A DNA stretch of 64,000 nt, from the NCBI GenBank assembly GCA_963422365.1, contig OY729426.1:1024001-1088000 (forward strand). The letters are read 5' to 3'. The stretch comes from Nitrospirales bacterium. GTDB lineage: Bacteria; Nitrospirota; Nitrospiria; Nitrospirales; UBA8639. Made by a program: the position numbers and the translations under genes. Of this stretch, positions 47,849-62,777 are shown piece by piece (position 1 is the stretch's first letter; each line of letters opens with the position of its first letter). The notes below the pieces were generated by a model. That model was given only the letters and a program-made list of their open reading frames with translations. It made no database searches and was not told the DNA's origin.

Positions 47849-47972
47849 TGATGAGATATCTTCCAATCAGTTTTGAGGATCTCTTCTCACGTTACTGTAC
47901 AGGAAGGGCGATAATCAAGAACGGCTCAAGAAGGTCGGCTGACGATGACGCGCAGATGTGTGCGCTGCTCGA

Positions 47973-48672
47973 CTAAACCAGCGCCCGTTCCCGTTTATGT
48001 TTTCGTTGAGGCCAGTCCGGCAGGCAGAGGTCCAACAGCTTGTAAACATCGGAATCGTGATGGCGGTGTGAAACGTGGCAAAGCTCGTGAACCACGACGT
48101 ATTCACTGCACGCTTTCGGTGCTTTGATTAAGTCCGCATTGAGCGTCAGCCGGCTGCTTCTTGACAAGCTTCCCCAACGCGCCTTCAACTTTCTTCTTTT
48201 CAGGACGGGCCTAGCAACGTCGTTTTTTTTGAACTTTTCCCAACACAAATGAAAAACGGCCTGGAAGCAGGTTGAGGCTTTTTAGAAATACCACTCTTCA
48301 AGCAGCGTTTGAATATGGGGGTTGGAGACTGAACATGGAAATATCCGCTCTTTAAAAAACCTGCTTGGTTTTGGACCTTCTGATTTTCAGCCGGTCTTTT
48401 CGTCCGAGATAAAGGTGGGATTCTCCACCCACGTGCCGGCGTGGCGGAGTTCTCGGCTCAAACTGTTCAAAGTAACGTATCTGGCGATGAATCCATCCGG
48501 CGCGTTTCCGCACTCTGCGGACAACCTCTTCGGAATCGCTTCTAAGCGGAGTTTTCACAACAACGGATTTGTCCGGGTGGACGGCAATCTCCAAGGTCTT
48601 TCTTTTGAGGTGGAGGACGTCAAAAACAATCTCCTCTCGTCCATACGCGATTGACTCCGCCCACCGGCTCAT
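47973..48672 (-). pseudogene. M48/YgjP (DUF45) metallopeptidase associated with type I RM, frameshifted
   Basis: RKTLEIAVHPD, GESHLYLGR, RWGS, YVVVHELCH in separate frames. Confidence 0.85.
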
Positions 48673-51350
48673 CCGTGCCTCCTGTTGCGGGCCATCCTCA
48701 TTGTCCGTTCAATAATTTCATCCGGTTGCTCGTTCTTTAGTTCAACGCCTTCTTTAGTTTTCACTTCGTCATACAGATGGGCCTCAATGTCGTTGATGGC
48801 GCTGTTTCGCGTATCCGGGTCGTCACAGAAATGCACTTTGCCGTGGCGTTGCAAAATCTCATGGATGGCAAGAGCCGTATCCGCCGATCTGTCATCGCAC
48901 GTGTCGGCCCCGCAGCCGGACGTTTCAAAAACAGGTTTAATCACGCTGAAAAATGCGGCGGCATCCCTCTTAAGGCGCAGTTTCTCAGGTCTACCCTTAT
49001 TCCCGTGGCTGTCAAAGTCCCTTTGAATCTCGAAAACCCTGTTCAGGTATTCCAATCCGGAGAGACGCTCTGCTCTGAACTCATCAATGACCCGTTGGAT
49101 CAGGTTTGAAAATTTTTGGTAAAAAGCTGGGTCTTCCTCTATTTTTTCGCTGATGGTGCGCTTCATCCGGTGGGCGATTTCATCTGCCCGTGAAGCTTCG
49201 GTTTTGCTGCCGTACTCGACCTCCGCGCCGCTTTCGCCAGTCGGGAGGGCGTCGAAAATGTTCTCCGGCTTGTTTATCTGCGTAACCTTGTCGGCTTGAA
49301 TCTGGGTGTCCAGGAGCTTCTTGATTTTCGGCTCATGCTCTCCGTAATCGACTGCATCGGCGTAGCGCAGTTTCACCGAACGTCTCAGTTTTTCAAACCG
49401 TTTCAAATCCTTTTGTAATATCGTAGGGCCGTTCGTCCACGTCCGTCAAAAATCTGTGGGAGGGAAGGGCAACGGCAAGGGTTTTGGCATAGTCCGCAAG
49501 CACTCCATAAAATTTTTCTCTTCGTTCGTCATCGCTCAGAAGCCTCTCATACTCTTCCTCATCGACTTGGTTTTTGACCTCTCTGAAAACGTCCCCAAGG
49601 TGGGAATGTTTCTGCGGCAGTTTTTCAATCTGCTCATGGACGGAAACCAGCGTATGTTCCAAATCCTGCTCGTCAAATCCTTCCAGCGCGTCATACATCG
49701 TGAAAGCCGTGTTCAGTTCGCCCAGTATGCCCTCGTAGTCCACGATAGAGCCGAAGTTTTTGCCTTGATGCAGTCGGTTCACGCGCGCAATCGCCTGAAG
49801 CAGCTCGTGTTCACGCAGTGTTCTCCATAGAGAAAGAACGGTGTTGACCGGCGCGTCAAATCCGGTCAGAAGTTTGTCTGCCACGATTACGATCTCAGGC
49901 TCTTCGGCGTTCTTGAAACGCTTGATAATGTTTTCCGAGTAGTGGGCTTCCGAGCCGAAGCGTTTCATCATGCTGTCCCAGAAATTCCGAACCTCGGAGG
50001 TCGGTTCTTCGTCGATTTCTTCAAAGCCCTCCCGCCGATCGGGCGGGGAGATGACCACTTCGGAGGAAACGTCTTCTATCTCTTTCATAAACCGATGATA
50101 TTGAATGGCCGTGGCTTTGTCCGGCGCAACCAATTGCGCCTTGAAGCCTGTGCCCTTCCAGTTGGCGCGATAATGCTCGCTGACGTCGAAGGCGCGCATA
50201 TAGACGACCCGCTCCGTCTTGTTGTGGGTATTGGCGCTGGCATATTTTCTTTTCAAATCGGCTTTCTGTTTTTCGCTGAGATCGACGGGGTATCGTTCAA
50301 ACCACAGGTCTACGGCGTCTCGATCCTGCTCCATTTCCACGTGGCGCCCTTCGTAAAGGAGCGGCACAATCGTCCCGTCATCGAGGGCCTGCCGGACGGA
50401 ATAGGACGGATCAATCAACCCGCCGAATTTGACGAAGTTGTTTTTCTGCTCATTTGTCAGCGGGGGTCCCGTAAACCCAAGGTCGCAGGCCCTTGGCAGC
50501 ATCTGTCGCATCCTTGCCGCAAGCGTCCCGAACGGGGGTGCGATGGCTTTCATCAACCAGCACGAAGACGTCAGGATCGTCATCACGCATGTTTCCTGCG
50601 TTCAAAGCCTTGTCGAATTTATGCACCGACGTCGTCACAACGGGTGTTTTGGATCGGATCAGATCCATCAGCTCGCGTCCGGTTGCCGCATGCTCCGGCT
50701 CGATACCGCACTGCCGGAAGACTTTTTCAATCTGTCTGTCCAGATCTTTCCTGTCCGTCGCCATGATGATGCGCGGATTTTTTATTTTCTCATCCATGGC
50801 AAGTAGTCGCGTAAGCCAGACCATGGTCAGCGATTTTCCCGAACCCAGCGCATGCCAGATTATGCCGCCTGTGCGCCGTCCCTCATCGTCCAACTGCTTG
50901 ACGCGCTGCAAAGCGGAGCGCATGACAAAAAACTGCTCGTAGCGCACGATTTTCTTTTTGCCCGCGTCAACAAGCGTGAGAGTTCCATCAGCCTTTCCGG
51001 GCGGCAGAGGCTGTAGATGGCCCTGTTCTGCTGCGTTGCCGTGCCGAGGGTCAGCAGGCCATAAACCGCCTCGTTGGTTTTCAGCAGTCTGTCGTATCGG
51101 ACGTTTTTGATCTTCTGAACGGCGGACTGGATATTCTCCTCGCTGAACAGGTATTCCCCGCCTCTGTAGTGGATGCGATTGATTTTCTTGATCCGGCTAC
51201 GCAGGATATTTTCCAGCAAAATATTGCCGAGTTTTTTTCGCCTTGCTTGAAAAGCCTGTTTTGGCGTCAGGTATTCGTAGCCGAGGTTGATCAGTTCCTG
51301 GAGGGCGGGATTTAAGAGAGGTGTTTTTCGTTGAAAGAAAAGCCGTGCAT
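48669..51350 (-). pseudogene. hsdR: Type I restriction endonuclease subunit R, pseudogene
   Basis: WHALGSGKS, TDR.DLD.Q, VDESH, LLTGFDAP, LLQAIARVNR; several frameshifts, an early stop and an apparent internal deletion near 51030. Confidence 0.92.
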
Positions 51351-52308
51351 TTATTTTATCCAACATTCAACGGGCGTTGACAGAAAGTGCTCAAGAGCAA
51401 TGCCGCTTGCGCCAACTATCAGGCTTGTGGGATGGAATGCTTTGGAGAAAGCGTCTAAGCCTGGAAACGAATCGGGAATTCCACCACTTTTTACTTCAAT
51501 GGCAGTAAGTTTCTTCCCTTTACGCAAGACCAAATCCATTTCACGGTTGTTGTCCCGCCAAGAGAAGAGTTCACATTCCCCGCCAACGGCTGAATTGAGC
51601 AAATGGGCTCCCACGGCAGATTCCGTCAGTCGTCCCAACAGTTGGGTATCTTCAAGCACCTCTTGCCAAGTCCTACTGAATTGAGCGGTTATCAGTGCCG
51701 TGTTGAAGACTTGAATTTTTTGAATTGAGCGTCCGCTTGCCGCCACACTGCCCACATATTTTTGCAGTCCGATATGAAGCGGGCGGCTCCTGGATAGGCA
51801 TCGTAGAAAAGATAGTGTTTCAAATTCCACCCGAAAGCCCGTTTCATTTCGGGGAAACTCCAGTGAGGCAGATGCAGGGTTTCAAAACGCCCTGAAAGAC
51901 TTTCCGCAAGCCCCCGCCCCATCAAGAGCGGCGCTGAACCGAGCAACACCACTTTCACCAACCTTTTCTTGCGGGCGTCTTCATCCCAAAGACCTTTTAC
52001 CGTTACGGATCATTGCGGAATCTTTTGAACTTCATCCAATATCAGCAGGGCGCCTTTCCCTTTTGACTTTCCGCCAGGTGTCTCGCCTCTTCCCATTGGG
52101 ATATGATCCGCCCCTCACCGGCGCGAAGGGTCGGCTCATCCGCACTTGCAAAATGATAGGGCAGGTTGTTCCGCTCCGCCACTTGCAAGGCAAGGGGTGG
52201 CTTGCCCACCTGCCTTGCTCCCGATATGGACTGAATAAACCGGCGAGGTTCCTTCAGCCGTTTCGCTAACTCCTTTGCCTGCGGTCTAATAAATTCTGTT
52301 CTTGTCAT
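51351..52308 (-). pseudogene. AAA+ ATPase with DUF4143 and C-terminal nuclease-like motif, pseudogene
   Basis: GARQVGK, LLGSA...ESLSGRF, ES.VGAHL, EMDLV....AIEVKS; frameshifts and a deletion. Confidence 0.85.
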
Positions 52309-52453: not shown

Positions 52454-52846
52454 TCAAATCATTGGATTCAGCACTTGTAATCCCATTGCTTTGGCTCCAT
52501 CCAACATCCGTTTATCGTACGAAAACAAAAGAACATCCTGATTTTTGCCGGCCAGAAAATGCAGAGAAGCAAGGTGGATTACGTCAAGCGTACGGACGGA
52601 AACGGGAAACGGATCGAGTGCGCGAGTAAGAGCAACTGGCGACAACTCCAGTAAACTAATTCGACCGATCAATGTGCGCGCACGTTCACCATGAGATTCA
52701 GAAAGATTCCTACTGTACAGTCTATTCCAAACCTCGTACTCCAGTAATCGGCTAGACACCAGGGTTTCATCCCATACCCATGGATGGGGTTGCCGATCTT
52801 CACTTAACATCCGGGCCAATAGCACGGAGGTGTCAACATAAATCAT
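52454..52846 (-). CDS. vapC: VapC/PIN-domain toxin
   Basis: IYVDTS, EYEV, RTLD.IHLAS, SYDKRM; start overlaps the antitoxin stop. Confidence 0.9.
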   Translation of the reverse strand: MIYVDTSVLLARMLSEDRQPHPWVWDETLVSSRLLEYEVWNRLYSRNLSESHGERARTLIGRISLLELSPVALTRALDPFPVSVRTLDVIHLASLHFLAGKNQDVLLFSYDKRMLDGAKAMGLQVLNPMI

Positions 52847-53136
52847 CGGTCTGAACGGGCGTCATCAAGATCCGAGAGCAATTCATCCAGCTTCATTACG
52901 CCTTTGGTTTCGGGGATAGGCGTGTCAGGCGAGACAGTCGGCGGCTGTAGCAAACCACTACGGACTAATTCTGCCAACATCGCATCGGCCAGTATGGGGC
53001 TCCGAAACTCCCTGGGCGCGGTAAGTTCCGCCACAATCCGGTCCCGATCCGTCACGAGGACTGTCTCCCCGGACGCGACCAAGCGGATGTACTCACTGAA
53101 CTTGTTCTTAAGAATTTTGATGCCGACAGATCTCAT
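52843..53136 (-). CDS. Phd/YefM family antitoxin
   Basis: MRSVGIKILKNKFSEYIRLVASGETVLVTDRDRIVAEL. Confidence 0.9.
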   Translation of the reverse strand: MRSVGIKILKNKFSEYIRLVASGETVLVTDRDRIVAELTAPREFRSPILADAMLAELVRSGLLQPPTVSPDTPIPETKGVMKLDELLSDLDDARSDR

Positions 53137-53217
53137 GCTTGCATGGTAGCCCGTTGGAGCCACTTTGCCCCCCCCCTGTACGCACTCAACTTCAGAGAGC
53201 GGGGTGAGCTATCCCCA

Positions 53218-53384
53218 CCTGCTGGAACCGAGGGAGACCATTTTGTTGGCGTCAACGAAATGGTCGAGAATCCTGTGTTCCGACACTTCGCACGCTACTT
53301 TAGCGCGGTTGATAACCTATAAAAGTTCCGCCAATCGGTATAGCTAAGCAGGCCCTGAAGGTCACGGGCAAGCCAGAACTCAAC
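53218..53384 (-). pseudogene. dinD: DNA-damage-inducible protein D, fragment after the insertion (3' truncated)
   Basis: VEFWLARDLQGLLSYTDWRNF then VINRAKVACEVSEHRILDHFVDANKMVSLGS after a frameshift. Confidence 0.85.
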
Positions 53385-53583
53385 GCCGCTGTAGCCGTAT
53401 GAAAATAATTGTGGATCCGGACGAAAAGAATTGCGAGGGGTCTAGAAATTTCTCTTGGGTTTGGAGGGGCACTCGGTGGTGGGGAATGGGCGGGGCAGGG
53501 GGGGAGGGTAAGGTGAGGGCGCCGATACGGCTGCGGCGGGAGCCGGCGGCATCGAGCGGCGCCAGGCTGTGGGCCGGCTGCCC

Positions 53584-56470
53584 TCACGACAGGGCGCCGA
53601 TGCGGACGCGGAGGCGTCCGGCGGCGTCGTAGACGGAGAGGCGATTGTCGGAGATTTCGACGCGCTCGCCGGCGGCGGCGGAGCGGAAGGTGCCCACGGT
53701 GGCGGAGAGGGCCGAGAGGGTCTGCACGTTCATGGCGTTGGCCGTGACGCTGCCCGGCATCAGGAGCTGGCCGTCGAGGCGCTTCTCGACCGGTCGCCTC
53801 CCCCCTGCCGTCCACGGCCCGAGTCTCAATCCAAGTGAGGGCGGGATTGTAGAGGGTGACCGTGTCGGAGAGCACCGCCTCCTGCGCATTCGGCAGCGCT
53901 GCCATCGCCGCGTAGTAGACAAAGGCCGGGTACTCAACCGGCGTGGGCCATGACCCGCTCACCCGTCGCGTGGCGATCCAATGCTGCTTGGCCTGCTCCC
54001 AGTTCTCGGGGAGCCTGGAGCGAGACCAGCCGGCCTGACTCTTGGCCGGGTCGCCGGGCCCGCTGCGGGCCGTGGTCTGGTAGATGAAGCGTATCCCGTT
54101 GTACGTGCCGAGGATCGGCCGGTGCAGGTAGCAATCGCCACGCGGGCAAGAGGGGGGGCGCCCCGGGTCGCCCTGGGGGCCGGCCAGACTCAGGAGCCGC
54201 GGGGGCTGAAGGCGCGCCCCAGGCCCCGGATCGGCCGGTTCGGCTGGAGACCCACATCCAGCGAGCTGAGGCGGAGACGCTCTGGGGCTCGTCGTACCAC
54301 CCGGTGGGGATGTCGTCGTCCGTAGTGGCGGATCCCGTGGGGGTGGTAGGGGGGTGCCTGTTGCGGTGACGCGATAGATCCACTCGGCGCCCTCGCTGTC
54401 CTTCGGGAGCGGGGGCGGAGCGGGCAGTGTGACGGTGACGGTGGCCGGGGTCGAGGCCTGGCCGGCCACGGCCACGACCCCGACGGTCCAGGGGCCTGCG
54501 GTGAGGTCGGGGGTGGTCCAGGGTGAGGCGGTGACGAGGCCGGCGTGGAGCGGGGCGAGAGTGTCCCAGGCCAAGCCCTTTGCGCCGGCGCGGAGGGCAT
54601 ACCCCACGACCGTGGGGGTGGGGGAGGCGCCTCAGGTGACCTCACGAGTGCCGTCCGCTCGGGCTGTGACGCGCAGCCCGGTCACGGGCGGCGGGGCGGG
54701 GCTGCCCCCGACGGTATGGCTCTGCTACCAGGCCGGGGCGCCGGTGCCGAAGGGCGCCACTGCGATGGTGATCTGGGTTCCCGGAGGCGCTGCGATGATC
54801 CAGGCGAGCTGCGTCTCGGTGGGGCCGAGGGTCCCCACGTGAGCCCCGTCCACAGACACCAGGGCCCCATCCCAGGGCCCGGCCGTCTCGACCGAGAGGG
54901 TGAGTTGGGTGACCTCGCCACGGCAGGCGCGGACCGGCTGCTCGGTGATCTGTCCGGCGAGGACGCGCGGCAGGAGGCGCCGCGGGGGCGGCAGGGGCAC
55001 CGAGAGATCGCTGGTGGCCGCATCGTGATAGGCTTGGACCTCGTCGATGGCTTCGAGCCGCACGCGGCTCTCGGCGGTGGGTTCCAGGGCCACGATGCGC
55101 ACGGTGGCGGGCTGGTCTGCGGTCCGATAGAGGCGCCAGAGGACGTCGATGGCCGGGGCCATCTCGTCGGGGAGGCGTTGGGCCAGGCTGACCCGCGCCG
55201 AGCCCCTGTCAGCCCCGGTGAGCTGCGTGGTGTGGAGCGTCCCCTCGGGCAGGCGCAGGACGAGCCAGTCGCCGGTCACAGCGCCCGTGTCGTGCCCGAG
55301 GTCCACCAGGAAGGGGGAGACGATCTCCCTGCACCGCCAGGTCTGCCCTCCGTCGAGGAACGAGTGGGTCAGGTAGACCACGTCGCCGAGGGCGACGGTC
55401 AGCCCTTCGGGGCCGTTCTCCCACGTGATACGGCGGCGGTGGACGCGGGGGTGGTGACCCCGGGCATCAGACGGCGCACCTCCCCCCATTGCCAGTCGAG
55501 GGCGGGCTCGAGGTAGCGCACGACGATCTCCTCGGCGATCTGGCCGGAGGCGTAGTCGAGTGCCAGGCTGCCGGCGACGATATTGCCTGGGAAGAACAGC
55601 GCGGTGGGTGCACGGTCGGTGTCCTCCCACACCACGCAGAGCCGGCCCGAGGCCCAGGTGGGGGAGGCTCGGCCGCAGCGCACGATGCGCGCGAGGACCT
55701 CGGCGTGGCTGATAGGGCGATCCAGCACGAGATCGCAGCGTAGCGGGGGGATATGGGCGTCGCACCAGGCCCCCCAGGCTCTGATGGCCGGTTCGTCGAG
55801 CCGGCCACCAGGCGGCCGTGGATCTTGGTCCCGAGCGCATAGTCGACTTAGAAGCACGCGGGGTTGCTAGTCTCGCCAGTCTCCCAGCGAGCTGTCTCAG
55901 GATTAAAGCAGGAGACCCGTCTCCTGGCGAGGCCGGAGAGTCGCTCCAGGCGGCCGCTGAGTTGCCACGAGGCCCTGATGCGCACGGCCAGGCGCCGCTG
56001 GCCGGGATACGAGGCGGTATCCGGCTGATAGGTGCGGATGGCTATCCAGGTCACTCGATCTGAGATGCGGCGGTTGCCAGAGGGGGGGGTGAGGCGCCAG
56101 AGGCGCAGCACCCAGGTGCCCGCCCCGTCGATGGCGCGTTCGTCCGCCGGGAGGGGATAGGTATAGGTCCGGCGTACCGGCGTCAGGCGGTCGGCCTCGA
56201 GCCCTTTGAGGCCCCAGGCGGCTCCCGGGAGATAGATGGCGGCGATGAGGACGGCCACCTGGAGCGTGGTGCGCAGCGGGTCGCTGTCCTGGCCGTGCAC
56301 CGGGCCTCGGGCTGTGATGCGCTCCCCTCCCCGGAGGGCGGTCTGGGCCCAGGCGGCCGGCGGCACGTTGCGCCCGTTGAGCTGCACCACCCAGTCGGTC
56401 AGGGGCCCGTGGCAGGTGCGGGCGAGCACCTGGGCCAGGGGCTCCACGGGGGAGATCCCACCGGGCGCGT
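53584..56470 (-). pseudogene. Tail tip/host-specificity protein (gpI-gpJ-like), fragmented
   Basis: DPLRTTLQVAVL, ASWQLSGRLERL, ETSNPA, IRAWGAWCD, VRLEAIDE, C-terminus GERVEISDNRLSVYDAAGRLRVRIGAL; many frameshifts. Confidence 0.75.
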
Positions 56471-56487
56471 CTCACGCCCCTCCGCGG

Positions 56488-56960
56488 TCAGCGGATGCGG
56501 CCAGCGATCGAGGATGGAGAGGACGGGGTGGGCAGCCATCGATAGATCCCGCACATCTCGAGGGTGGGGGGCAAGGCGACGACTCGGTGGAGGCACACCC
56601 CGAGGACTTGCTGGCAGTGGAGCACGGATGGCGTGCTGTGGGGGGCGCACCAGAGGCCGAGGTGCTGCCCGATCACGCCAGCCCGGCCCGGCCGCGCATG
56701 AGGACGGCGTCACCCTCGCGCAGCCTCTCGCGGCCCCACAGCGGTCTGGCGATGTCGCCGACCAGGGCGCGGGCCAGGTCGTCGCGGCTACGCACGGTGG
56801 TCGCGCGTGGCGGGCCGTCGGGCTGGCCGGGCAGCCGGAGGTGCAGTGCGAATTGCTCTCGGAGCACCGTGGCTGCAAAATCCGTGCAGTTGTGCGCCAC
56901 GGGCACCCACGGGCGACCCAGATACCGCTCACTCCAATGAGGCTGCCGGCGTTGCATCAA
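56488..56960 (-). pseudogene. NlpC/P60 tail assembly protein (gpK-like), frameshifted
   Basis: HWSERYLGRPW...NCTDF, EGDAVLM, HLGLW...VLHC. Confidence 0.75.
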
Positions 56961-57438
56961 AACAGCCCCGTGGCTGTCTGGGGGTCGAAGCGCAACCGGA
57001 CCGCGGGCTTGTCCATCTGGGGGTCGTAGCCCAGGCGGAGGGTGACGCGCGCGGCATCCACGTGCGCGCTCAGGACGTCCATCTGAAGAGACCAGTCCCA
57101 GGCGCCGGCGCCGGCCAGGCCCTGGGAGACCCTCACGGTGCCGCCGACGCCCACCTGGGTCTGCTCGATCGCGCTGGTGAGGAGGCGGCCCACATTGTCG
57201 AGGCTGATCTCCGCGTGCGCCGGCCGCCCCTCCGTCTCCGTGGCCAGGCGCACGCTGAAGCGCACGCCCACGTAGCGCACGCCGCGGACCACGTGATCCG
57301 CCACGTCGTCCACGAGGGAGATGGGGGTCTAGAGCGCCGGATGAGAGATCGTCAGCCCCGTGAGCACCACGGCGTCCGGGGCTGTGGCCCGGAGCGCCTG
57401 CTGATAGGGCGCCTTCGCGTCCCCGCCGGGCGCGTCAC
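56957..57438 (-). pseudogene. DUF1833/gpL-like minor tail protein with an internal stop
   Basis: LTISHPAL*TPISLVDD...AEISLDNVGR.L...RFDPQTATGLF. Confidence 0.75.
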
Positions 57439-57788
57439 GAGCGCCACCCCTCGAGATCGGCTGTCCAGTGCCGCTGCTGTGCGACGACGTGCGCGGTCCA
57501 CGCGATCCCGCCGAGTCCCTCGCGCACCCGGACCTGCCTCAGCGTCCCGCCATGATCGCGCCACGCGAACCACGTGTGTGCGTGCGACCTGGCCCAGGCC
57601 ATAAAGTCCGCGTACCGTCGGTCATCCGCCAAGTGCACGGTCACGCGCGTGACCGTCAGGGCCGCGGTGTGCCGGCGCACCTGCCGGATCATCCCGTCGT
57701 CACAGGTCGTGCGCTCCACATCGGGGTCTGGCCGGACGGTATAGCCATCCGCCACCACCTGCGCATACGTAGGCCACTCCGCCGCCAT
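57435..57788 (-). CDS. Phage minor tail/distal tail protein (gpM-like)
   Basis: GYTVRPDPDVERT..DDG.IRQ.R, F.AW.......WFAW; GGAGG RBS; lies directly after the tape measure gene. Confidence 0.7.
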   Translation of the reverse strand: MAAEWPTYAQVVADGYTVRPDPDVERTTCDDGMIRQVRRHTAALTVTRVTVHLADDRRYADFMAWARSHAHTWFAWRDHGGTLRQVRVREGLGGIAWTAHVVAQQRHWTADLEGWRS

Positions 57789-57872
57789 CAGGCCCCTCCT
57801 TGGTTAGGACTCATCATAATTATTCCTTGCCCCTGCTCCCTTCCTCCTTTCCCCTTTTTCTTTTCCCCTTCC

Positions 57873-59855
57873 TCATCCCGCGGGCTGCCGGCGTCCGCGG
57901 GTGAGCGTCTCGATCGAGCGGGCGATCGGCCCGCGCGTCTGCAGATCCTCCAGCACCACCCCGATGATGACCCTGTCCCCGCGCAGCGTGGCCTCGGCGG
58001 TCGTGGCCCGCTGCGGCGTGCCGCGATTGTCGAGGCGCACCTCCACTCGCTGCAGGGCCCCTGGTCCCAGCGCCGCCATCTGCTCGGGGGTGAACACCCC
58101 CGAGCCCCGCCTGGCGATGATGGGCTGCGCCCACCACCCCGCCGCCGTGATACCGCGGGGCCCCCAGCCAGGCGCGTGGGAGATGCCGTGCCGTGTCAAG
58201 GCCAGGGCCCCGACGAGGCCACCCGTATGCGCTATGCCCGCGTCGAGCCCCAGGGCCTGCGCCAGCGGCCTCAGAACCGCTTGCCGGATCACCAACCGCG
58301 TCAGATCCGCAAGCATGGCGTCCACCATCCCCTGCCAGTTCGCCTTGCCGGTCGTGACAAACTCCGTGAGCGCTGATTCCATGCGGCCCAGAGAGAAAAA
58401 GATGGCCTGCTGGGCTGCCTGCGAGGCGTCTCCGGCGAACGTGGCGTATCGCTCGAACGCCCGCGGCTGGCCGCCCGTCTCGAGGTGCTGCCGCAGCCGA
58501 GTGAGGGCCTCGGTGAGTGCCCGTATCGCCTCCTGCTGGGCCCGGACCGCCGCGCCACCAGCCAGCCCGGCCGGGATCTCTCGTGCCCGTACCTCCTCCA
58601 ACGCGTACTCCACCTGCTCGATCTGCCGCTGCACGTCCGTCGCCGCGCCCAGGAGCATATCCGGCACCCGCCGCATCTGCTCGCGGATCTCCCCGATCAG
58701 CTTGTCGTCCAGGATGCCGCCGCCCGCCAGGATGTGGGCCCGCAAGGTCTCCGTGAGGGCGCGGGTGATTTGCTCGAGCGCCACGCGTTGCACTGCGCTC
58801 GTGTAGCCGCGGGCGCTGGTGGGTTTTGCGGCCTCGGCGCCGTAGCGTGATAGCAGCGCCCGCAGCTCACGGGCCGTGGCCCCCGCCGTGACAGGCGGCT
58901 CGGTCCCCGCCACCGTGTTGACGATCCTGGCGGCTAGCCCGGCCGCCTCGGACAGCCACCCCAGCAGGCCCGATTGGGCAATGGCGTGCTGCAGGTTCGC
59001 CACAGCCGTGTGCATCCGCTCGATGTTCGCGGCCGCGCTGCCCGTGGCCTCGGCTAACGAGGCACTGTAGGTCCGTCGGAGTTGCGCCGCCAGCTTGGGC
59101 AGAAAGTCCTCGGCCTGCAGTTGGCCCTGGGCCAACTGCTTATCCAGTTCTTCCGTGGTCAGGCCCATGGCCTGCGCCGCCTGCTGAAAGGCTCCCACGA
59201 GCCGCTCGCCCAACTGCCCCCGCAGCTCTTCCGCGGAGACCTTGCCCTTGCTGATAATTTGTTCAATGGCGGTGAAGGCCCCTGCCACCTGACTGCCCGA
59301 GAGCCCCAGCACGCGCCCTGCCTCGCTCACTGCCGAGAAGATCTCGCGCGTCTGGGCGCCCGCCAGCGCCGTGCCCTTGGCCGCGGCGGTGAGCTTCGAG
59401 AAGCCCTCCCCGGCCGTCAGGAGATTGAGCCCGAGGCGCTCCGCCTCGCCCCGCACAAACGCAAACGCCCGGGCGGCCCGCTCGGGGCCGACGGCGAAGG
59501 TGAGCCGTTGGTCGAGAGCTTGAAATTTCAGGCCGGACTCGACAATCCCGGAGGCAAACCCCGTGAGCCCTCGGAACACCGTCTGTGCCCCGAGCGTCAC
59601 AAGGTTGGCCGCCAGCCCCGCCACCGCGAAGTCCAGCTTTTTGAGGGCGCCCCCAGCTCGCCCAAAGAAGGGGCCGGCGTCACGGGCGGCCGTGCCGAGC
59701 GACCGGAGCCCCCTCGCGGCCGGGCCGCTCTGCCGTCTGATGGCGTCGGCGCCACCGGCCACCCCTCCGAGCTGCCCTTTGAGCCTCTTGAGCCGCTCGG
59801 GCGTCTGCCCGAGGTCGGCCTGGATCCGCAACGCGAGCCTGAGGTCTCTAGCCAT
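57873..59855 (-). CDS. Phage tail tape measure protein
   Basis: QIISKGKVSAEELRGQLGERL N-terminal tape-measure domain; FVTTGKANWQGMVDAMLADL lambda-type C-terminal region. Confidence 0.9.
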   Translation of the reverse strand: MARDLRLALRIQADLGQTPERLKRLKGQLGGVAGGADAIRRQSGPAARGLRSLGTAARDAGPFFGRAGGALKKLDFAVAGLAANLVTLGAQTVFRGLTGFASGIVESGLKFQALDQRLTFAVGPERAARAFAFVRGEAERLGLNLLTAGEGFSKLTAAAKGTALAGAQTREIFSAVSEAGRVLGLSGSQVAGAFTAIEQIISKGKVSAEELRGQLGERLVGAFQQAAQAMGLTTEELDKQLAQGQLQAEDFLPKLAAQLRRTYSASLAEATGSAAANIERMHTAVANLQHAIAQSGLLGWLSEAAGLAARIVNTVAGTEPPVTAGATARELRALLSRYGAEAAKPTSARGYTSAVQRVALEQITRALTETLRAHILAGGGILDDKLIGEIREQMRRVPDMLLGAATDVQRQIEQVEYALEEVRAREIPAGLAGGAAVRAQQEAIRALTEALTRLRQHLETGGQPRAFERYATFAGDASQAAQQAIFFSLGRMESALTEFVTTGKANWQGMVDAMLADLTRLVIRQAVLRPLAQALGLDAGIAHTGGLVGALALTRHGISHAPGWGPRGITAAGWWAQPIIARRGSGVFTPEQMAALGPGALQRVEVRLDNRGTPQRATTAEATLRGDRVIIGVVLEDLQTRGPIARSIETLTRGRRQPAG

Positions 59856-59911
59856 GGCTCCGATCTCCTCCGAGGGCTTGATGCCCCCCCGCGGCCATGC
59901 CCAAGGCCTCA

Positions 59912-59980
59912 GCCGTTTTCTGTTTGCCTGGCGTAGTATTCAAAGTCGTTGGTGAGGGATCGGATGATTTCGGTTTTCAT
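59912..59980 (-). pseudogene. dinD: dinD 5' fragment (first 23 codons)
   Basis: MKTEIIRSLTNDFEYYARQTENG after an AGGA RBS; continues in frame at 53384 (VEFWLARD). Confidence 0.85.
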
Positions 59981-60117: not shown

Positions 60118-61815
60118 TCATTTAGCTTTATTTTGTTTTCTTAATGCTTCAAGAGCTTCTTTAATTCCTTTTTCTTTTTTGTCTTTCTTCCATTCATCCC
60201 AAAAATCAATAGTGGCGCTTTTGGGTTGAACTGCTGGCTCATCAATTTTCACTCTGCTTGGCAACAGGCAGGCATCACCTACAATTAAACTTTCCCCTAT
60301 ATCCAAAGCAGGCAATAAATCAGCAAAATTCCCTAAGTTATCTGGAAACAGTCTCCTGATAACATTCTGATCATCAGGGTTTGAGAGCCTCATTGATATA
60401 AAATTCCCACACTGACTTAAAACTGTCTTACTAACATCTGCTGGCCTTTGGCTAATTACAACCAAGGATACTCCATATTTTCTTCCTTCCTTTGCGACTC
60501 TCTGGAAACTATGGAGCCCCCTTTCCTCAATACTGGAGCTTGCGTTTGCAGGGATATATAAATGAGCCTCCTCACAAAATAAAGCGATAGGATGCCTTTT
60601 ATCTTCATCGGTCCATTGTTGCACGGAAAAAATTAACCTTGTTACCAACCCGGTTATCAATGGCAATATATCGGAGGGTACTTCTGAAAAATCGATTATT
60701 TTGTTTCCTTTTCGATTATTAAAATCCATTAACTTTTCGATCAAATTTTCAAGCCAGTTATACTCCTGCAAAGCTGAATTCTTATTAAAAAGAAAATTCA
60801 GCCTTTTATCGCTTTGCTTGCTTTTTAACCTCTGTATAAAACGGGTGAGTTTTCCATATAGAGGCCCTTGTTTTTCACTGCGAGACCCTGAAATCATTTC
60901 TTTGTCTTTTTCGTCGAGCTTTTTTAAGACTTCATCTATGGAATACGGAACAGGGCTATCAATCGTAAAATTATTAAGAATATTCTGTTTGTTGTTTCCT
61001 TCCAATTTCTTCTTTTTGTATTCAATAACCAAGTCAAATAAAGCTCTTGCCTGATTAGGAGCATTCTGGTCGCTTCTGTCCAGCATCATTGCTTCTATTT
61101 CTTCATACGATAAAAGCCAGTAAGGCAAATATACAATTTTTTCATCGTCTATATTGTCTACAGGTCCCGCCACTCTCAATAAAGTTGTATTGCCTAATGC
61201 CTTGAGCGGCTTATATTCTCCGTGAATATCAAATATGATACTGTTTACAGATTCTAACTGAGAAGATTTCTCTAGAATTTTAGCAACAGTCCAGGATTTT
61301 CCAGAGCCTGTACTTCCGACGATAACAGCATGTCTTTGGAAAAATTTGTTGCCATCCAAATATGCCTGAGCATCATCTGATATAACGTATTTGCCAAGAT
61401 TTAATGATTTCTCTTCCTCTTGTTCCTCAACGGACAGGGACCGCATAAAGTTGAAAAGCTCATCGCCCTCTAGCAGAAAGCAATCCGCATCAAGACTTGG
61501 TACTGTCTCTAAGGTTCGCTTGAAAACATTGGATTTTGTGCCGTATTTATCCAGCAATGTTCCGACTAAGCAGACTTTTACTACATTCTCAACAACAATC
61601 TCTTCGGGGTTATCAGGTTCTGCCTTATCAGAAAATTTGCGCATGATTTTTATGACCAAACCGATGATGGATTTGCCCGTTTTCGTCGATCGGATACGGA
61701 GTAAATTATTAACTTGAATGCTGTTAAGCATTTGCTCTTCAATGACTTTGATAACAATGTTTCCCGTATCAACACTTTCTACGTTTCCTAATGGTTTTTG
61801 TTTTGATTCACTCAT
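60118..61815 (-). CDS. herA: HerA/DUF87 ATPase of a SIR2-HerA antiphage system
   Basis: HAS-barrel-like N-terminus, RHAVIVGSTGSGKS, DIHGEY, EEAH, KEGRKYG..SQRP. Confidence 0.92.
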   Translation of the reverse strand: MSESKQKPLGNVESVDTGNIVIKVIEEQMLNSIQVNNLLRIRSTKTGKSIIGLVIKIMRKFSDKAEPDNPEEIVVENVVKVCLVGTLLDKYGTKSNVFKRTLETVPSLDADCFLLEGDELFNFMRSLSVEEQEEEKSLNLGKYVISDDAQAYLDGNKFFQRHAVIVGSTGSGKSWTVAKILEKSSQLESVNSIIFDIHGEYKPLKALGNTTLLRVAGPVDNIDDEKIVYLPYWLLSYEEIEAMMLDRSDQNAPNQARALFDLVIEYKKKKLEGNNKQNILNNFTIDSPVPYSIDEVLKKLDEKDKEMISGSRSEKQGPLYGKLTRFIQRLKSKQSDKRLNFLFNKNSALQEYNWLENLIEKLMDFNNRKGNKIIDFSEVPSDILPLITGLVTRLIFSVQQWTDEDKRHPIALFCEEAHLYIPANASSSIEERGLHSFQRVAKEGRKYGVSLVVISQRPADVSKTVLSQCGNFISMRLSNPDDQNVIRRLFPDNLGNFADLLPALDIGESLIVGDACLLPSRVKIDEPAVQPKSATIDFWDEWKKDKKEKGIKEALEALRKQNKAK

Positions 61816-62777
61816 AGCGTCTCCATAAACTTATCGAGTTGCCAGTAGTTTCCTTCTAATGAAACAGTTCGTTCACCAGCGCCATTTCCTTTTTTGACTG
61901 TGACTTTCGTTTCGCTTGCATTCTCTTCAAATAAACAATATTTGCCAGCCCTATTCAGCTTTTCCGTACAAGAATCTGTTGCCTTTTTTGTGATAATCAC
62001 AATAGGAACCCCTTCTTTGATTGCGTTATCAATCTTGGGTGTCAAATGTTTGTCATTAAAACCGAAGCCAACAACTAAAAAACTGCGTGCTTTCTCAATA
62101 GCGTTGTCCGATTTTCCAATAAGGGTTCTGTATGGCTCTTGGAATGCCTCATCACATTTATTGCGAGCAGGTAACACCATGCCATATTTGAGTGCGTTGA
62201 AATCGTGCTCACACGGTAAATAAAATAGGTCGTTGTTTTCATCAAAAAACCAGTTTAGTGAACCATGAACTTTTATTAAATTTATTATTTTTTGTTCTCC
62301 AAAAGCCTTTGGAGAAAATCTTGACAATGATCTTCCGGTGAATCCATCTGTGAAATTGTCATTGGATTGCGACAGTGCGTATTCCAAAACACGATCATAA
62401 TTAGTCGTCACGATGTCAATTTTACATGGATGAGGGTCGTAAAACTTCTTTATCATTTTGGTTATGGCCTCAAAATAATTTGTATCTTGTATGGATTCCT
62501 TTAGGCAGGCCATATCCCTTTTAAGAACTTTCTCTCTTGTAATCTTTCTGATTTCATCAGTCTTTGTTTGATCTTGAATTTTCCCCAACTCCATTTCTAA
62601 GTCAGAGTCTTCGTTAAGGCTATCCAGGACGGGTTTAAGCTCTTCTTTTAACTCATCCATACTTGGAAGCCCATATGGGATGGTTGCCCCTGAACCCCAA
62701 ATAATTACAGGAGGATTGCTTAGAAAATTTTGGACGAGTTTAGACACATCGTCTTTCTCTTCATCGCTATTACTCAT
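61812..62777 (-). CDS. SIR2-family (SIR2_2) NADase-like protein
   Basis: GSGATIPYGLP, TTNYD, KVHGSLNW, GFGFND.H; ATGA overlap with herA. Confidence 0.9.
   Translation of the reverse strand: MSNSDEEKDDVSKLVQNFLSNPPVIIWGSGATIPYGLPSMDELKEELKPVLDSLNEDSDLEMELGKIQDQTKTDEIRKITREKVLKRDMACLKESIQDTNYFEAITKMIKKFYDPHPCKIDIVTTNYDRVLEYALSQSNDNFTDGFTGRSLSRFSPKAFGEQKIINLIKVHGSLNWFFDENNDLFYLPCEHDFNALKYGMVLPARNKCDEAFQEPYRTLIGKSDNAIEKARSFLVVGFGFNDKHLTPKIDNAIKEGVPIVIITKKATDSCTEKLNRAGKYCLFEENASETKVTVKKGNGAGERTVSLEGNYWQLDKFMETL

Follow-up and report, generated by a model that had tools for sequence, protein, structure and literature searches.

The window, i.e., the whole stretch of 64,000 nucleotides that was analyzed, contains a dinD gene split by an element of 6522 bp, which occupies window positions 53390–59911. 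The genome of the window is designated G000 and its contig C1, G001 is a close relative, L numbers denote single loci, and 37 congeners were compared. The element begins with TGTAGCC and ends with GGCCTCA, and its GC content is 71.0% (0.710) vs 53.4% (0.534) for the genome. The reading frame of dinD starts at 59980 on the reverse strand and runs for 23 codons (59912–59980), after which it resumes in frame at 53384, corresponding to position 24 of the NCBIfam DinD profile. When the element was excised in silico, dinD aligned across the junction to nine of the 15 congener loci supplied, the best with 90.7% identity over 258 nt, and not a single dinD base was lost. The element is flanked by GCCGC (53385–53389, forward strand) and GCCGT (59912–59916, forward strand), a 5 bp target duplication that, judged against the congener dinD, matches at four of five positions; the copy at 59912 is the majority allele, carried by five of nine congener loci, while the copy at 53385, whose type was found in one of the nine, differs at the base adjoining the TG. 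The TG...CA termini by which Mu-like phages are recognized are thus present, and, with the junction fixed by dinD, the chance of finding TG/CA together with a four-of-five repeat is about 0.004 × 0.016. TG...CA termini and a 5 bp duplication are reported for Mu-type transposition (PMC1475752), and NYSRN with a central CGG is given as the Mu-type target preference (PMC5977238, PMC12486242); the dinD target fits this preference, whereas the targets of two sister elements of 1.84 kb and 4.2 kb in the same genome do not. The interruption, length, termini and flanks are all as the preliminary description had given them.

The dinD gene is itself a remnant, as its 3′ part (53212–53384, reverse strand; codons 24 to about 82, identified with the DinD profile) carries a frameshift near codon 46 and a stop near codon 82. 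Matches to the profile were obtained in 15 of the 37 congeners, three of them above the cut-off, and in loci L043–L048, from five congener genomes, dinD ends at about position 83–91. Since several congener copies also stop at position 83–91, the truncation may be older than the insertion. An assembly artefact was considered and rejected: public contigs of run X4 span both junctions, those of run X5, from another study, span the junction at 53390, and depth rises three- to four-fold over the end shared with other copies. No joint bypassing the element was found in the four runs examined, among which X4 is possibly the source sample, and X6 and X7 yielded short, shallow pieces only.

The gene content of the element is limited to a tape measure gene and lambda-like tail-tip genes, all of them decayed and on the reverse strand. 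The tape measure gene (57873–59855; Pfam TMP_3 and Tape_meas_lam_C) encodes 660 aa, against 721–858 aa in its relatives, and is internally shortened with a degraded C-terminal motif. It is followed at its 3′ side by a gene in the gpM position (57435–57788, phrog_384), a DUF1833/phrog_396 minor tail gene in the gpL position with an in-frame stop near its 5′ end (56957–57440), a gpK-like remnant interrupted by a stop (56488–56960; 33% identity to an NlpC/P60-like ORF of the viral locus L148), and remnants of the gpI/gpJ tail-tip genes, spread over several frames and carrying deletions (53584–56447; phrog_31 and FNIII-A_GpJ, with HSPs to the gpJ of L148 in three frames). The Pfam and phrog matches, along with the GC content, bear out the set of tape measure, gpM-, gpL-, gpK- and gpJ-like, GC-rich genes that had been proposed. 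The whole five-gene tail module was found in one of the 164 viral loci fetched, L148, compared with which the copies in the element show stops, frame changes and deletions. L148 is a 9.6 kb fragment lacking MuA, and no record among the 164 viral loci ties the tail module directly to MuA. No head, portal, terminase, tail-tube or integrase gene was observed within the element, which measures 6.5 kb vs 35–40 kb for a full Mu-like genome. A tailocin or domesticated tail module was rejected in view of the stops, the frameshifts and the missing tube gene; the tape measure profile was detected in none of the 37 congeners and in one of 114 other genomes of the family.

Besides the remnant state of dinD and the broken tail genes, the preliminary description had not recorded that the two ends of the element are not equivalent. 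The end at 53390 is a true Mu-type end (53390–53433, forward strand) with two predicted tandem sites of 22 bp, namely site 1 (53390–53411, beginning with TG) and site 2 (53412–53433), which are identical at 17 of 22 positions. Tandem transposase sites are established for the ends of Mu, and the repeats are as expected if they are transposase sites. Two sites per end are likewise described for KS10 (PMC2628397). The distal end (59897–59911, reverse strand), in contrast, consists of TG and 13 further bases without any repeated site; it is situated about 55 bp before the start of the tape measure gene, at the point where a sister copy diverges. Its score against the end profile is −13.2 vs 29.5–39.0 for real ends, the latter being inflated since the profile was built from them, and it ranks 105th among the 337 TG positions of the element (16th of 337 when the first seven bases are considered). 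With the real left end, as seen in a sister, it has the TGA alone in common, or six of seven bases when one gap is allowed. The repeated sites predicted at 53390 are absent at 59911, and the two-ended mini-Mu arrangement, which is lacking in the window, is present in the sister at G000:2211730–2215927.

The end at 53390 is 99.75% identical over 801 bp to G000:889959–890759. True ends were located at nine places in G000, the others being 890751, 1002737, 1741431, 1767089, about 2092040, 2196269, 2215927 and 1673167, of which the last has no first site. The flanks differ among the nine copies, indicating insertion at many chromosomal sites. A strict end pattern retrieved seven copies in G000 and none in the 37 congeners. 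Outside G000, matches to the end motif (none in viral contigs, eight in metagenomes and one in a genome) had neither a second site nor a phage gene and were attributed to chance. An integrase-driven element that entered dinD at an att core of 4–5 bp might be considered, since the termini form a weak 7 bp inverted repeat around the core. However, the nine ends have unrelated flanks and tandem sites, no integrase lies within the element, relatives encode a DDE transposase, and two empty sites at unrelated loci largely refute it, which makes this route highly improbable.

The two empty sites belong to the sister elements. The smaller sister, G000:1002737–1004576 (1840 bp), is bounded by a perfect GCCTG duplication, of which a single copy occupies the empty site in G001, while a 6 bp reading of the duplication also fits the letters. 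At the far end, the terminal TG falls inside a phage gene, among the opening codons; homologues of this gene begin a few residues before that point (five of seven matches aligned, with the N-terminal register judged by eye). This far end shares only the TG with the real left end. An open, moron-like gene for an outer-membrane beta-barrel protein, on the opposite strand, is also carried by the same sister (L001:1238–3077), which lies upstream of polA. The larger sister, G000:2211730–2215927 (L010, 4198 bp), is flanked by GGCAC and GGCAA (four of five), with one GGCAA in the empty site of G001, and possesses a real left end, in which one site is terminal and a second lies about 90 bp inward; this left end represents an end variant that differs slightly. 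It contains Portal_Mu, gpF and two tape measure starts, one of them 95% identical to the tape measure of the element, while most of its middle is lost. Portal and gpF were found in sisters only, and neither capsid nor terminase gave a match. Two of the three elements with both sides known retain no more than three left-end bases. At the remaining six ends, no target duplications were found, their far sides being rearranged or deleted relative to G001. Along with the Mu-type end, the empty sites and their 5 bp duplications uphold the earlier claim that a transposable phage, here one with a lambda-like tail tip, moved by Mu-type transposition. In two of the three two-sided insertions, the duplicated copy is mismatched only at the base beside the 5′ TG, which is C both times (window position 53389 and G000:C1:2211729); this base could be retained from the donor flank or be due to chance. 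Four targets, of which one was read from an uninterrupted paralogue, have in common a TTGC motif 8–9 bases from the duplication (as seen in 2 of 3000 random sets; post hoc); none of four one-sided flanks had it. At G000:C1:2215300–2215680 and 889360–889820, a unit consisting of a small membrane gene on the opposite strand and, after it, a tape measure start stub is repeated, which suggests that genes were inserted serially at a position immediately upstream of the tape measure gene.

These sisters also bear on the possibility that illegitimate or homology-assisted recombination at 4 bp microhomologies pasted the segment into dinD from a different locus (G000:890751, for instance), the far TG/CA being fortuitous. 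The 890751 copy has the identical flank GCCGC besides its 99.75% identity over 801 bp, and its flank resembles dinD by the far junction (3 of 200,000 random 21-mers; post hoc). Nevertheless, of the 6.5 kb just 0.8 kb is present at that locus, simple crossing-over would require the resemblance to be on the other side, dinD lost no base at the insertion and the sisters have clean 5 bp duplications, so that we consider this origin improbable.

A transposase was searched for throughout G000, which is 98.6% complete. No rve match was obtained in G000 (6 of 14 controls were positive), no Mu-transpos_C match was obtained there (three of five phage records used as controls were positive), and tblastn with three MuA relatives gave no match; neither a MuA DDE transposase nor a MuB ATPase was found in the element or in G000. 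A strong phrog_296 match in G000 looks like host ExeA and was set aside. Because no transposase was found in G000, all the elements were treated as fossils. Among the viral records fetched, the nearest relative of the portal (61%) and gpF (67%) of the 4.2 kb sister is G420, which encodes a transposase with rve and Mu-transpos_C domains, MuB, Gam, a late activator and a terminase, and ends shortly after gpF. That the dinD halves join and that G420, a sister's nearest viral relative, encodes a DDE transposase with MuB both agree with the preliminary description. The latter's expectation of full-length relatives encoding MuA and MuB held for G420 as to both genes, while no full-length parent phage emerged from protein scans of viral contigs. 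G421 (94% complete) was dismissed as the parent, being a distant Mu-like phage without any tail-tip match.

In comparison with known systems, the element is like Mu/D3112-type phages and mini-Mu in its TG...CA termini, 5 bp duplication, tandem end sites and NYSRN-type target, and in having sisters with a Mu-type portal and gpF, but differs from these phages in its size of 6.5 kb, its decay, the restriction of sites to one end and the lack of transposase, head and tail-tube genes. It resembles mini-Mu in its working, but with neither a genuine second end nor a transposase it does not qualify as one. In KS10, gpF, portal and terminase lie together at one end of the genome and are encoded on the opposite strand (PMC2628397). 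An order like that of KS10 was recognized, from layout and not from sequence, in the 4.2 kb sister and G420, and gpF–portal–terminase at one end on the strand opposite the tail was seen in three sisters and G420, the full parent not having been found. The tail of KS10 is Mu-like, unlike the lambda-like tail tip of the element (tape measure, DUF1833, K-like and gpJ). Among the top tape measure matches in 50,697 phage records were Ralstonia phage RS138 (49% over 240 aa) and the Pseudomonas B3-like phages H71/H72/Ps59 (30% over 370 aa); both fetched records carry transposase genes, but their tail-tip genes have no match in the element. Moreover, B3-family transposases give 6 bp duplications (PMC8705779), unlike the 5 bp found in the window and the 4.2 kb sister, the 1.84 kb sister being ambiguous.

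As to how the element reached dinD, we regard one-ended transposition with a cryptic far end, of a piece already short when it moved, as reasonably probable. A helper transposase, present transiently, would have brought together the genuine end on the tail side and a look-alike that starts with TG a short way upstream of the tape measure gene, and only the intervening 6.5 kb would have moved into dinD, giving the 5 bp duplication; the genes would later have decayed and the helper been lost, leaving an inert fossil. A transposase bound to one real end and an internal look-alike predicts bare-TG far ends directly, and the cryptic end is favored because two elements retain at most three left-end bases, for which a deletion would need to stop within 2–3 bases twice, an outcome seldom expected of random deletion. 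Against it stand the single mismatch in the duplication, the slightly different variant to which the real left end used for comparison belongs, and the parental sequence upstream of the tape measure, which was not found in the viral contigs searched; because that sequence is missing, we infer the cryptic end and the prior shortness of the segment. The preliminary description had supposed instead that a whole phage inserted and was then reduced by a deletion leaving a few bases of one end. In that case, a full prophage or two-ended mini-element in dinD would have been deleted from the first bases of the left end to a short look-alike near the tape measure gene. The real left end opens with the same TGA as the distal end (six of seven bases agree if one gap is admitted), which fits a microhomology deletion too, and internal deletions are common, as in the middle of the 4.2 kb sister and the shortened tape measure and gpJ genes. 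However, the breakpoint would have to fall within the first 2–3 bases in two separate elements, the 1.84 kb sister has only TG in common with the left end, and the opposite end is nearly unchanged. Considering also the distal score of −13 vs 29–39 and the same pattern in a second element, the supposition is doubtful, and we hold a later deletion to be possible but clearly less likely than the use of a cryptic end. All routes other than these two jointly have a small probability.

One-ended transposition of mini-Mu was reportedly obtained in the laboratory by Groenen, Kokke and van de Putte in 1986, and Goldhaber-Gordon is said to have described transposition of non-Mu DNA in 2002. One-ended mini-Mu is alike in combining one genuine end with a substitute site, but that is a laboratory result, whereas the case in dinD would be natural and fixed, and G000 would hold a second one. 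No report of a natural one-ended Mu-type insertion was found in the literature searched, which lay largely outside subscription papers and was partly noisy. The element is an inert fossil, now functionless, of a Mu-type phage with a lambda-like tail tip and one of nine traces in the genome; although such relics are ordinary, this one is unusual as a natural, fixed case in which a phage transposase seemingly resorted to a substitute end. This seems to have happened twice within G000, and the empty sites allow it to be checked. If this is true, insertions of the kind escape search tools that require both ends, and host or cargo DNA could be mobilized by a lone phage end. The relics also give the outlines of a hitherto undescribed transposable phage of high GC content, with a lambda-like tail tip, a 5 bp duplication and probably a layout like that of KS10.

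The host range of this phage was reconsidered. Portal_Mu was found in none of the 37 congeners and in none of a sample of 40 genomes of the family; in the phylum, 43 of 401 genomes had it. The two named top relatives of the tape measure are from a Rhodobacteraceae MAG and a Chloroflexota MAG. Given these relatives and the 71% GC, a visitor from GC-rich neighbours appears as likely as a resident phage. The earlier proposal of a phage specific to Nitrospirota is therefore doubtful, in view of the GC content of 71% vs 53%, the relics in 0 of 37 congeners and the tape measure relatives elsewhere. G000 itself carries Pup-ligase and proteasome genes, which we take to be consistent with Nitrospirota. 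Three CRISPR arrays with 128 units were detected in G000 with a custom k-mer finder, and the spacer comparison that had been proposed returned no match to the relics or to the 164 viral loci.

The proposed jump into a defence island was substantiated by the surroundings of dinD, all on the reverse strand: a Sir2-HerA defence pair with open frames and 39% GC (60118–62777), a Phd/YefM antitoxin with a PIN gene (52454–53163), and a type I restriction subunit R in pieces (48669–51366). G001 lacks this island, from about window position 47966 to just past the window end. A giant fn3/Ig/LRR/cadherin gene lies within 5 kb of six of the nine ends vs 4.9% of the genome, or of four of seven when related copies are merged (p about 2e-4), on a hand-made list of 12 genes that missed fn3 loci seen later; foreign DNA also clusters by survival alone. 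Four ends face giant genes and two mark an island edge relative to G001, but no duplication enclosing a giant gene was found, and at one of these loci G001 possesses a GC-rich fn3 gene itself. It is rather unlikely, but conceivable, that a lone Mu-type end served as a one-ended gene-capture device, with helper transposase and cryptic TG sites moving non-phage cargo and spreading adhesion-type genes typical of sponge symbionts. The supposed cargo comprises the outer-membrane beta-barrel gene, a 13 kb cadherin/PKD-type gene, a 20 kb polysaccharide and LRR island, and fn3/Ig genes. PMC8163846 leaves open the vehicles of fibronectin/cadherin/ELR gene transfer among sponge symbionts, for which G000 is a weakly supported candidate case; we infer a sponge habitat of the host solely from its giant-gene content (PMC8163846). 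Phage ends as the cause of the genus-wide fn3 expansion were rejected, as fn3 occurs in 33 of the 37 congeners (up to 78 matches) without relics.

Some further features of these genomes were recorded. Six GC-rich fn3/Ig giant copies sharing parts of 94–99.5% identity are located at G000:C1:853578–856766, 891145–898115, 1647529–1656498, 1666459–1671933, 1732266–1736498 and 1770321–1777256, near host duplications (a Pup-ligase region of 4054 bp, 100% identical) and rearrangements relative to G001. The 20 kb island (G000:C1:2176367–2196269) contains polysaccharide genes and an LRR gene of 2067 aa, has a phage end as its border on one side, and replaces a gene of G001 that, by eye, is CRP-like. 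In a congener, an open frame of 12,900 aa with fn3 repeats was located at G050:C1:756000–793500, with frames of 12,600–13,400 aa in G023, G048 and G052. The CRISPR array at G000:C1:875183–882373 has about 100 repeats, and its first two spacers have exact 38 nt chromosome matches at 633850–633887 and 691110–691147. Finally, G000:C1:1–58333 and 2437343–2495695 form a 58 kb terminal overlap with 99.8% identity, probably reflecting an untrimmed circular assembly.
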